From Escherichia coli (lineage in GTDB: Bacteria > Pseudomonadota > Gammaproteobacteria > Enterobacterales > Enterobacteriaceae), in NCBI RefSeq assembly GCF_003018255.1, contig NZ_CP027440.1: a DNA stretch of 64,000 bases; one strand, written 5' to 3'. How positions within the stretch are numbered: position 1 is the first letter of the stretch; the number at the start of each line of letters is the position of its first letter. The translations under genes were made by a program, and so were the position numbers. Of the stretch, positions 16,269 to 24,340 are shown in pieces. The notes beneath the pieces are model-generated. The model had not been told where the DNA came from, made no database searches, and saw nothing but the letters and a program-made list of their open reading frames with translations.

Positions 16269-21820
<5,552 letters not shown>

Positions 21821-21822
21821 CA

Positions 21823-22164
21823 ATGCGAATATTTGTCTACGGCAGTTTACGCCACAAACAAGGCAACAGTCACTGGATGACCAATGCCCAGTTACTGGGC
21901 GATTTCAGTATCGATAACTACCAGTTGTATAGCCTGGGCCACTATCCAGGCGCAGTTCCGGGGAACGGAACAGTACACGGTGAAGTTTATCGTATTGATA
22001 ACGCCACGCTGGCCGAACTTGATGCCTTGCGCACCAGGGGCGGTGAATACGCGCGCCAGTTGATTCAGACGCCGTACGGGAGTGCATGGATGTACGTTTA
22101 TCAACGACCCGTCGATGGATTAAAGCTAATTGAAAGCGGCGACTGGTTAGACAGGGATAAGTAA
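21823..22164 (+). CDS. ytfP: gamma-glutamylcyclotransferase-like protein YtfP
   Basis: 113-aa ORF starting 3 bp after the tamB stop. Confidence 0.8.
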   Translation: MRIFVYGSLRHKQGNSHWMTNAQLLGDFSIDNYQLYSLGHYPGAVPGNGTVHGEVYRIDNATLAELDALRTRGGEYARQLIQTPYGSAWMYVYQRPVDGLKLIESGDWLDRDK

Positions 22165-22174
22165 TAATAAAAGC

Positions 22175-22200
22175 ACGCCACCTTCGGGTGGCGTTGTTTT
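22175..22200 (+). terminator. intrinsic terminator of the tamAB-ytfP operon
   Basis: ACGCCACC-ttcg-GGTGGCGT stem-loop followed by TGTTTT. Confidence 0.75.
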
Positions 22201-22543
22201 ATGCGATGTATCTCGCGATTTTTTTTGTAACTTTCCCATCTTTTGCTTTTCTCTCCGGGCCGCTTTCCATATCTGCAATCGCATAAAAAACTCTGCTGGC
22301 GTTAACAAATGTACAGGGGTAAAACGGGGACACGCTTTGAACGGTGAGTATGAGTGAGGCCGGCTAACTTCCAGCAAGTGGCTATGAACAGCAAAATGGT
22401 GGTCGAGTTTAGCTTGTTCTTACCGTTCAAGCCTTTCAACTGCTGAAAATAATAATAGTGGAGTAGAGAGTTTATAAATTGCGGGCATAAAAAAACCCTT
22501 ACTAACCGAAGCCCGGTGTTCAGGGTTATTGCGCCAGAAGAAC

Positions 22544-23074
22544 TTATTTATTCTTGGCGCGCTCGAAGGAAGCAACGATTTCAGCTTTAGCGGCTTCTGC
22601 GTTTTCCCAACCTTCAACTTTAACCCACTTGCCTTTTTCGAGGTCTTTGTAGTGCTCGAAGAAGTGAGCGATTTGCGCTTTCAGCAGCTCTGGCAGATCG
22701 TTAACGTCTTTAATGTGATCGTATTCTTTGCTCAGCTTGGTGTGCGGAACAGCAATCAGTTTCGCATCTTCACCGGCTTCGTCGGTCATTTTCAGTACGC
22801 CAACCGGACGGCAGCGGATCACAGAACCCGGCTGCAGCGGGTACGGAGTCGGGACCAGTACGTCAACCGGGTCACCGTCCAGAGACAGAGTGTGGTTGAT
22901 GTAACCGTAGTTGCACGGATAGAACATCGCGGTGGACATGAAGCGGTCAACGAACAGTGCGCCGCTCTCTTTGTCGATTTCGTATTTGATTGGATCTGCG
23001 TTAGCCGGGATCTCAATAACAACGTAGATGTCTTCCGGCAGATCTTTACCCGCAGGGACGTTGAGTAAGCTCAT
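22544..23074 (-). CDS. ppa: inorganic pyrophosphatase
   Basis: 176-aa [35 protein letters not shown], recognised as Ppa. Confidence 0.95.
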
Positions 23075-23293
23075 GTCTGTTTCCTTTAAAAATATGTGGC
23101 AAACAAGTGCCGAGTATTATAGCCAACTCGCGCCGAATGTCTTCGCTTGTTTTCGTCTTCATTTTCCTTTTTCGCCAGTTTTAAGACGGTATACAGAGCA
23201 GGAAAATCCATAACCGTAGCCGCATTTTTCATAGTGAGATGAAAGCGATTACAAACTTGTGATTAACGTTTTATTTACTTTTTTGAAGTGTGA

Positions 23294-23312
23294 TGTAACG
23301 CAATCCGTTACA
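23294..23312. promoter_or_regulatory. 7-5-7 inverted repeat upstream of ytfQ (candidate operator)
   Basis: TGTAACG-caatc-CGTTACA, about 72 bp upstream of the ytfQ ATG. Confidence 0.35.
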
Positions 23313-23383
23313 TAACGAATTGTCTATAGTTTTTTCGCGAACATCTTTTCACCAATAATAATTACCCCGACGAGGACAACCCT

Positions 23384-24340
23384 ATGTGGAAACGCTTACT
23401 TGTAGTCTCTGCAGTCTCGGCAGCCATGTCGTCTATGGCGTTGGCCGCTCCATTAACCGTTGGATTTTCGCAGGTCGGGTCGGAATCCGGCTGGCGCGCC
23501 GCAGAAACCAATGTGGCGAAAAGTGAAGCCGAAAAGCGCGGAATTACGTTGAAAATTGCCGATGGTCAGCAAAAGCAGGAAAACCAGATTAAAGCGGTAC
23601 GTTCCTTCGTCGCGCAAGGGGTGGATGCGATCTTTATCGCTCCAGTGGTAGCGACCGGTTGGGAGCCGGTATTAAAAGAGGCGAAAGATGCCGAAATCCC
23701 GGTCTTCTTGCTTGACCGTTCCATCGATGTGAAAGACAAATCTCTCTATATGACCACTGTCACCGCCGACAACATCCTCGAAGGCAAGTTGATTGGTGAC
23801 TGGCTGGTAAAAGAAGTGAATGGCAAACCATGCAACGTGGTGGAGCTGCAGGGCACCGTTGGGGCCAGCGTCGCCATTGACCGTAAGAAAGGCTTTGCCG
23901 AAGCCATTAAGAATGCGCCAAATATCAAAATTATCCGCTCGCAGTCAGGTGACTTCACCCGCAGCAAAGGCAAAGAAGTGATGGAGAGCTTTATCAAAGC
24001 GGAAAACAACGGCAAAAACATCTGCATGGTTTACGCCCATAACGATGACATGGTGATTGGTGCAATTCAGGCAATTAAAGAAGCGGGCCTGAAACCGGGC
24101 AAAGATATCCTGACAGGCTCTATCGACGGTGTGCCGGACATCTACAAAGCGATGATTGATGGCGAAGCGAACGCCAGTGTTGAACTGACGCCGAATATGG
24201 CAGGTCCCGCCTTCGACGCGCTGGAGAAATATAAAAAAGACGGCACCATGCCTGAAAAGCTGACGTTAACCAAATCCACCCTTTATCTGCCTGATACCGC
24301 AAAAGAAGAGTTAGAGAAGAAGAAAAATATGGGGTATTGA
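23384..24340 (+). CDS. ytfQ: galactofuranose ABC transporter periplasmic binding protein YtfQ
   Basis: 318-aa ORF with signal peptide; periplasmic sugar-binding fold. Confidence 0.9.
   Translation: MWKRLLVVSAVSAAMSSMALAAPLTVGFSQVGSESGWRAAETNVAKSEAEKRGITLKIADGQQKQENQIKAVRSFVAQGVDAIFIAPVVATGWEPVLKEAKDAEIPVFLLDRSIDVKDKSLYMTTVTADNILEGKLIGDWLVKEVNGKPCNVVELQGTVGASVAIDRKKGFAEAIKNAPNIKIIRSQSGDFTRSKGKEVMESFIKAENNGKNICMVYAHNDDMVIGAIQAIKEAGLKPGKDILTGSIDGVPDIYKAMIDGEANASVELTPNMAGPAFDALEKYKKDGTMPEKLTLTKSTLYLPDTAKEELEKKKNMGY

Follow-up and report, generated by a model that had tools for sequence, protein, structure and literature searches.

The ytfP–ppa gap of an Escherichia coli genome as a probable relic of the chpS–chpB toxin–antitoxin cassette

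The 379-bp gap between ytfP and ppa (22165–22543) in the window, a 64,000-nucleotide stretch of E. coli contig NZ_CP027440.1 (assembly GCF_003018255.1), very probably consists of the terminators of both genes together with the non-functional relic of a chpS–chpB (MazE/MazF-type) type II toxin–antitoxin (TA) cassette. Approximately 255 of the 379 bp, lying between the two terminator regions, are cassette-derived. They comprise an upstream leader, a fragment of the toxin gene chpB and a remnant of its 3′ untranslated spacer, joined across two deletions.

The gap is flanked on the left by ytfP, a gene of the gamma-glutamylcyclotransferase family (21823–22164, plus strand; ORF list and annotation in identical or homologous records), and on the right by ppa, encoding inorganic diphosphatase (22544–23074, minus strand; ORF list and annotation of homologous records), with tamB (18041–21820) and ytfQ (23384–24340), both on the plus strand, lying beyond them. 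A first-pass annotation made from the letters alone had described a gap of about 380 bp with no credible ORF, preceded by the ytfP terminator, at the place where K-12 carries chpSB, and each part of this description holds. The ORFs listed in the gap (25–76 aa) are mechanical and are broken by indels that vary among alleles. For example, the frame of the 76-aa minus-strand ORF is shifted by a run of T that has eight in the window and nine in the B strain, and a 30-aa plus-strand ORF is disrupted by a 1-nt indel when alleles are compared. The ytfP intrinsic terminator (22175–22200, plus strand) is formed by the stem ACGCCACC-TTCG-GGTGGCGT followed by a T-run; by terminator scan and folding, its stem (22175–22194) reaches −24.5 kcal/mol (z = −4.7), and it is kept in every Enterobacteriaceae genus compared. 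The terminator scan also returned a second terminator-like hairpin, GCGATGTATCTCGC followed by T8 (22203–22226, plus strand), with homologues in K-12 and other chpSB-bearing genera. The ppa terminator (22483–22533, minus strand) has an AACCCT...AGGGTT stem followed by T7 on the minus strand; its fold energy is indistinguishable from that of shuffled sequences, its A-run and hairpin occupy an identical position in all genera compared, and the region 22470–22543 matches K-12 at 93% over 74 nt (blastn). The order in K-12 MG1655 is ytfP, 211 bp, chpS, chpB, 79 bp and ppa, the same layout that is tabulated for K-12 in PMC5120126.

Aligned with K-12, the gap follows the ytfP–chpS spacer collinearly as far as GGGGTAAAACG (22165–22326), and as a whole it is not collinear with K-12. 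The retained chpSB upstream leader (22228–22326, plus strand), defined by alignments and a cross-genus footprint, ends at GGGGTAAAACG, and together with the terminator region it matches K-12 at 84% over 152 nt (blastn; gap positions 11–162). Directly 3′ of GGGGTAAAACG begins deletion 1, of approximately 311 bp, through which the operator palindrome, the Shine-Dalgarno sequence, the entire chpS gene and chpB codons 1–6 are gone; in the alignments its junction is occupied by the 9-nt filler GGGACACGC (22327–22335, plus strand). There follows a chpB pseudogene fragment covering codons 7–48 (22336–22461, plus strand), recognised by tblastn, blastn and an identity matrix and carrying a TGA stop (22345–22347), a TAG stop (22410–22412) and a frameshifting 1-nt deletion. 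Searching the whole 64-kb window with ChpB by tblastn gave a single significant match (22371–22460, E = 6e-6), corresponding to ChpB amino acids 19–48 at 60% identity with an in-frame stop, while the nucleotide match of chpB in the gap is 80% over 76 nt (blastn, E = 1e-15); codons 10–18 align poorly with the relic (approximately 48% identity).

Deletion 2 removed exactly 201 bp in frame (chpB nt 146–346, codons 49–115) and is bounded in intact chpB by the direct repeats GCTGGTGG and GGTGGTGG (TGGTGG), a typical signature of slippage or microhomology. Alignments place its junction at 22456–22466 (plus strand), where TAGTGG, derived from TGGTGG, is followed by AG TAG, the remainder of chpB codon 116 and the stop codon (22462–22466, plus strand). 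Beyond it lies a remnant of the chpB 3′ untranslated spacer, AGAGTTTATAAATTG, for which K-12 has GGTGTGTTTATTTATCG (22467–22482, plus strand). The first-pass annotation had proposed that two terminators would not require so long a spacer, that a scar or a small RNA could be retained in it, and that direct repeats might be found at the junctions: at 379 bp the gap exceeds the 100–170 bp of terminator-only sites and does contain a scar, and repeats flank one of the two junctions, that of the 201-bp chpB deletion. At several metagenome loci (L110, L117, L128 and others) a further 2 nt are missing at the deletion-2 junction (approximately 22454–22463), with AATAGGAG for AATAGTGGAG, which implies that erosion is ongoing at the repeat.

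A functional module of this type would be recognised by a complete toxin ORF encoding a PemK/MazF domain (PF02452), an upstream antitoxin gene of MazE/AbrB type (PF04014) overlapping the toxin start, and the operator palindrome AGTTATACTTTGTATAACT with its Shine-Dalgarno sequence. The gap contains none of these, and the palindrome does not occur in the window. ChpS has no similarity in the gap and no significant match within the 64-kb window (best E = 1.5). Similarly, Pfam returned nothing in the translated chpB fragment, compared with 90 bits for PemK_toxin in K-12 ChpB and a MazE_antitoxin assignment for ChpS. What the gap does contain are the marks of a relic, namely similarity to chpB, the position and flanks of the cassette, and disabling lesions. 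The relic thus shares with K-12 chpSB (chpBI/chpBK; MazE/MazF–PemI/PemK family) the site, leader, 3′ untranslated region, chpB codons 7–48 and the terminal codon, but differs in having neither antitoxin nor operator and in a toxin gene that lacks codons 1–6 and 49–115 and is interrupted by stops and a frameshift. The relic codes for no protein, cannot act as a TA system and, apart from a possible role of the hairpin described below, is most probably without function. The first-pass statement that the TA module is absent from this strain is therefore borne out, the antitoxin being gone and the toxin reduced to a broken fragment.

The same annotation had allowed that the module might never have been inserted, in which case the 379 bp would be ordinary intergenic DNA that resembles chpB by chance. 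One genome per species was searched with a YtfP query, giving 80 loci. In most Citrobacter, Enterobacter, Klebsiella, Kluyvera and Raoultella and in S. enterica diarizonae, the ytfP–ppa gap is 100–170 bp long and contains the ytfP terminator hairpin and the ppa terminator only. These are the dimensions and content of a truly empty site, two convergent terminators and nothing else, and the gap in the window is 379 bp. The leader (22228–22326) is missing at such sites, and is therefore part of the cassette and not ancestral spacer. The lack of ORFs agrees with a site that was never occupied, but the similarity to chpB is significant by both tblastn and blastn, the leader and 3′ untranslated region are collinear with K-12, and the truly empty sites are much shorter; this reading, to which we assign next to no probability, is already refuted. 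Given that it holds chpB sequence, the cassette leader and the 3′ untranslated region, the gap is a deletion derivative of an occupied site.

Occupied sites are taxonomically widespread. Several Escherichia lineages carry chpSB at the same site, with chpS approximately 213 bp past ytfP, as do Lelliottia, Enterobacter asburiae, Pseudocitrobacter, Kluyvera genomosp. 1 and isolate RIT691 (62–78% amino acid identity), indicating that the cassette is an old resident of the locus. Independent relics with other borders were found in Citrobacter sedlakii (ChpB amino acids 63–107; locus L030, 3430–3562) and Enterobacter cloacae DSM 26481 (a 5′ fragment of chpS; locus L036, 5100–5168), so loss of the module is recurrent and chpSB has been lost independently in several genera. 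By eye, the 171-bp gap of C. amalonaticus resembled the relic, but blastn did not support this and the resemblance was set aside.

The cassette was present in the lineage of the window, and two deletions removed its function; their sequence in time can be proposed from the biology of toxins and antitoxins. An ancestor carried an intact chpSB at the ytfP–ppa site, as K-12 does today. The first lesion would have been the 201-bp in-frame deletion in the toxin gene between the TGGTGG repeats, and the second the deletion of approximately 311 bp that took the operator, the antitoxin and six toxin codons and left the 9-nt filler. If chpS alone were lost, ChpB would be set free, and for this reason the toxin lesion should have come before or together with the loss of the antitoxin, and an order from toxin lesion to antitoxin loss is the most likely one. 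The leftover sequence has since drifted to approximately 70–74% identity with intact chpB, gaining stops and a frameshift on the way. Read in this order, the locus would represent a clean, dated case of the death of a chromosomal TA system, with a toxin crippled by a slippage deletion and an antitoxin lost afterwards.

The relic is an old, common allele. A megablast of ytfP–gap–ppa against 5,426 complete E. coli genomes found the locus in 5,425, with a 100% identical best match in strain 104 (chicken). At a coverage of at least 80%, intact chpSB was present in 3,098 of the 5,426 genomes (approximately 57%), all at least 95% identical to K-12, and a relic-type gap in 2,311 (approximately 43%), together 5,409 genomes. 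The two deletion borders are identical in the window, the B strain, the B2 strain PBP8, the E. albertii type strain and SCPM-O-B-8794, a strain that is labelled E. coli yet has a fourfold-site divergence like that of E. whittamii. E. whittamii and three other divergent Escherichia lineages have an intact chpSB.

Over codons 7–48, intact Escherichia chpB alleles are approximately 95% or more identical to each other and relic alleles 83–99%, while the relic has 70–74% identity with Escherichia chpB and 46–59% with chpB of other genera. Its 26–30% divergence from E. coli chpB, set against at most 5% among intact Escherichia alleles, might suggest that the fragment stems from a separately acquired mazF/pemK-like gene and not from Escherichia chpSB. 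We regard such an origin as very improbable: the fragment is nearer to Escherichia chpB than to the same-locus chpB of any other genus, its leader and 3′ untranslated region are of the Escherichia type, and the combination of 60% amino acid identity with 80% nucleotide identity, with stops inside strictly conserved motifs, indicates decay after coding constraint was lost and not a functional allele that has diverged. For a relic of Escherichia chpSB, the divergence from intact alleles would require either very long coexistence of the two alleles or transfer between species.

Comparison with E. albertii bears on this history. Between the window and E. albertii the relic has diverged by 17% and the fourfold-degenerate sites of ytfP and ppa by 13–15%, a similarity of the kind that would be expected for neutral, unconstrained DNA. 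Fourfold-site identity is 85–87% in ytfP and ppa, compared with 63–66% in tamB and ytfQ (divergence 34–37%), suggesting that a short segment may have moved between species. The ytfP–ppa segment resembles a recombination patch that has had a separate history, and flank haplotypes do not follow the allele state but form a mosaic, a pattern suggestive of recombination within the spacer. Between the window and strain 104, ytfP–gap–ppa is 100% identical, and fourfold sites are 92% identical in the 3′ end of tamB and 91% in ytfQ (window 20321–24337).

In other strains, DNA has been inserted at the ytfP terminator region. For example, in PBP8 and AST85 ytfP is separated from the chpB relic by the esiB island (at the equivalent of approximately 22165–22200), so the esiB state is not an empty site either; in PBP8 a separate copy of the terminator-like hairpin is carried by the DNA 3′ of esiB. 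The relic of CFSAN051542 is adjoined by a phage integrase gene, which takes the place of ytfP. Strain HH45 was considered as an intermediate stage of decay and rejected as unreliable (locus L007, 1198–1709). Its relic, annotated by PGAP as a PemK/MazF pseudogene, has the same borders, a central 101 bp that is 100% identical to K-12 chpB and approximately 130 nt of G/C-rich low-complexity sequence at the junction, and the allele probably reflects a mixed sample whose assembly was chimeric or mis-polished, and not a conversion tract. Two apparent further alleles (H69 and H70) turned out to match the normal chpSB and esiB alleles in part.

The locus polymorphism itself is of an already documented, ordinary kind. 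Pastorello 2013 in mBio (PMC3735183) gives, in its account of this locus, three states among 47 genomes, chpBS (53%), esiB (15%) and neither (32%), and the window corresponds to the ‘neither’ state. In that account the genes are treated as absent, whereas here both the ‘absent’ and the esiB states carry the chpB relic. It is well known that chromosomal TA systems of E. coli occupy conserved sites and degenerate through deletions and nonsense mutations (PMC7167474, which for TA decay cites the Fiedoruk 2015 survey and Mine 2009 on ccdO157). So far as that source describes such cases, the chpSB relic is alike in being a degenerating chromosomal TA system at a conserved location that segregates within the species, but differs in that the antitoxin is wholly lost, a toxin fragment remains and the relic occurs in E. 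albertii as well. What is added here is the anatomy of the ‘absent’ state, borders that are fixed across species, and the oddity of the hairpin. The presence of chpB or chpS has been scored in PCR surveys and in a bacteraemia association study (PMC11059956, PMC6096937). As chpSB-negative E. coli (B/BL21, B2 uropathogens and the strain of the window) carry the relic allele and not an empty site, such presence/absence and association surveys of chpB score two old haplotypes of a single locus.

Folding of the chpB fragment showed a long imperfect hairpin at 22336–22431 (plus strand), with arms of approximately 30 bp and a loop at 22371–22394; the relic segment 22336–22482 folds at −43 kcal/mol (z = −2.9). 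The same hairpin, of approximately 96 nt, is formed by codons 7–39 of intact Escherichia chpB at −46 to −50 kcal/mol (K-12 and loci L003, L008–L010 and L012), and is not found in chpB of Lelliottia, E. asburiae or Kluyvera. In the intact gene it is more stable than synonymous recodings (p = 0.003 with uniform codons and 0.03 with usage-weighted codons), and there it might modulate translation of the toxin. In the relic, the 5′ arm, which includes the poorly aligning stretch of codons 10–18, still pairs with the 3′ arm. The possibility that this arm is an inverted duplication of the 3′ arm was rejected and the arm treated as a diverged homologue: it matches the intact 5′ arm at 12–15 of 22 positions, compared with 11 of 22 for the Watson–Crick complement of its own 3′ arm.

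The degree of preservation was assessed by a decay simulation in which the observed substitutions were placed at random on the intact sequence. Relic hairpins have −36 to −40 kcal/mol, compared with a random-placement mean of −24 to −28 kcal/mol (p = 0.002–0.006), in a post hoc test on five to seven distinct alleles whose shared ancestry makes them one event. Such preservation beyond random placement would not fit pure neutrality. One reading is that the relic was exapted as a structured RNA. By this account deletion 1 would have fused a promoter-like element of chpS, freed of its operator and repressor, to the pre-existing chpB hairpin, giving a constitutive RNA of approximately 100–200 nt that starts near 22332 and has its stem kept by selection. 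We consider this unlikely. If it were true, a structured non-coding RNA would have been born from a dead toxin gene and recruited by selection in approximately 43% of E. coli and in E. albertii.

The pattern of changes in the stem is in part what selection on an RNA would leave. Two stem pairs differ on both sides between intact and relic sequences (G.U to U-A, and C-G to A-U or G.U), and the remaining stem changes are mostly one-sided, to or from G.U pairs. A u/u mismatch at stem position 14 is closed differently in two lineages, by G in SCPM-O-B-8794 and by A in E. albertii. The loop is the best conserved part, at 91–100% among relic alleles compared with 68–98% for the tail, and the plus strand folds better than the minus. 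Against this, the minus strand also has excess structure (p = 0.007–0.04) and the difference between strands is weak (p = 0.02–0.14), the stem of the E. albertii type strain is damaged, with two basal pairs broken (−27.8 kcal/mol, p = 0.15), and in one metagenome allele a G-to-A change disrupts the hairpin. A metagenome scan with a relic-specific 17-mer gave 24 true relic loci among 74 matches; these added just two hairpin variants, a number too small to test for covariation.

Mutation templated by an imperfect palindrome is established in E. coli, and it offers a way in which the hairpin of a neutral relic could be kept without selection, by intrastrand template switching. The changes in the 5′ arm form a cluster (9 of 11 adjacent positions), and with 13 of 24 changes being transversions this clustering suggests multi-nucleotide events; the excess complementarity of both strands also fits. 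A freshly templated patch, however, should be perfectly Watson–Crick paired, whereas five of the nine pairs in the changed patch are G.U and 7 of 12 positions in the patch depart from what an exact complement of the 3′ arm would have, so that templating is a doubtful, if possible, explanation.

In the leader, the promoter-like pair CTGGCG-18 nt-TAAAAC (22296–22301 and 22320–22325, plus strand) falls in a cross-genus footprint with the consensus CTGG(C/T)A, 18 nt, TA(A/G)AAC 5′ of chpS, and in the relic TAAAAC stops one base short of the deletion-1 border. Conservation of these −35/−10-like elements across genera, and their retention up to the border, are what an RNA reading would predict, and it is from this conservation that a putative promoter is proposed. 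When the window gap and the region upstream of K-12 chpS were scanned for consensus promoters, no plus-strand site was returned, CTGGCG-18-TAAAAC being below threshold, which counts against the RNA; the gap had one chance-level minus-strand site (22478–22449). Nor is there a clear plus-strand terminator, with no T-run terminator before ppa. Rfam 15, searched with an E-value threshold, gave no real match for 21800–23400 on both strands, the one chance hit being an S15-leader in ppa (E = 0.27, 17.9 bits compared with a gathering score of 39.5), so that the hairpin belongs to no Rfam family, and a literature search found no transcript data on relic-bearing strains.

In enteric bacteria, degraded genes have reportedly given rise to small RNAs such as EcsR2 (Raghavan, Kacharia and Ochman). 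Like these, the relic is a pseudogene fragment with a stable hairpin near a promoter-like element. Unlike them, it is known here from sequence alone, and the resemblance serves as a lead only.

In intact cassettes a palindrome with perfect arms, AGTTATAC-TTT-GTATAACT, lies beside the Shine-Dalgarno sequence 5′ of chpS (K-12, approximately 1975–2050) and is kept in seven chpSB-bearing taxa of six genera (K-12 and loci L010, L034, L043, L052, L070 and L087). It is likely the ChpS/ChpB operator, to judge from its position and conservation, and CTGG(C/T)A-18-TA(A/G)AAC lies approximately 40 nt farther upstream. A literature search found no published mapping of the chpS operator or promoter.

Two further observations concern ytfP and its upstream side. 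The sequence CAGGCACTGGATTTGCT at 21785–21801, in the 3′ end of tamB shortly 5′ of ytfP, is identical to the K-12 sigma-54 binding site IS51 (PMC4591121). On the strand opposite ytfP (minus strand of 21823–22164), an antisense RNA common to E. coli and Salmonella has been described (PMC3419515), as has ECS0021, a 57-nt cis-antisense candidate against ytfP/ytfN (PMC3175480).
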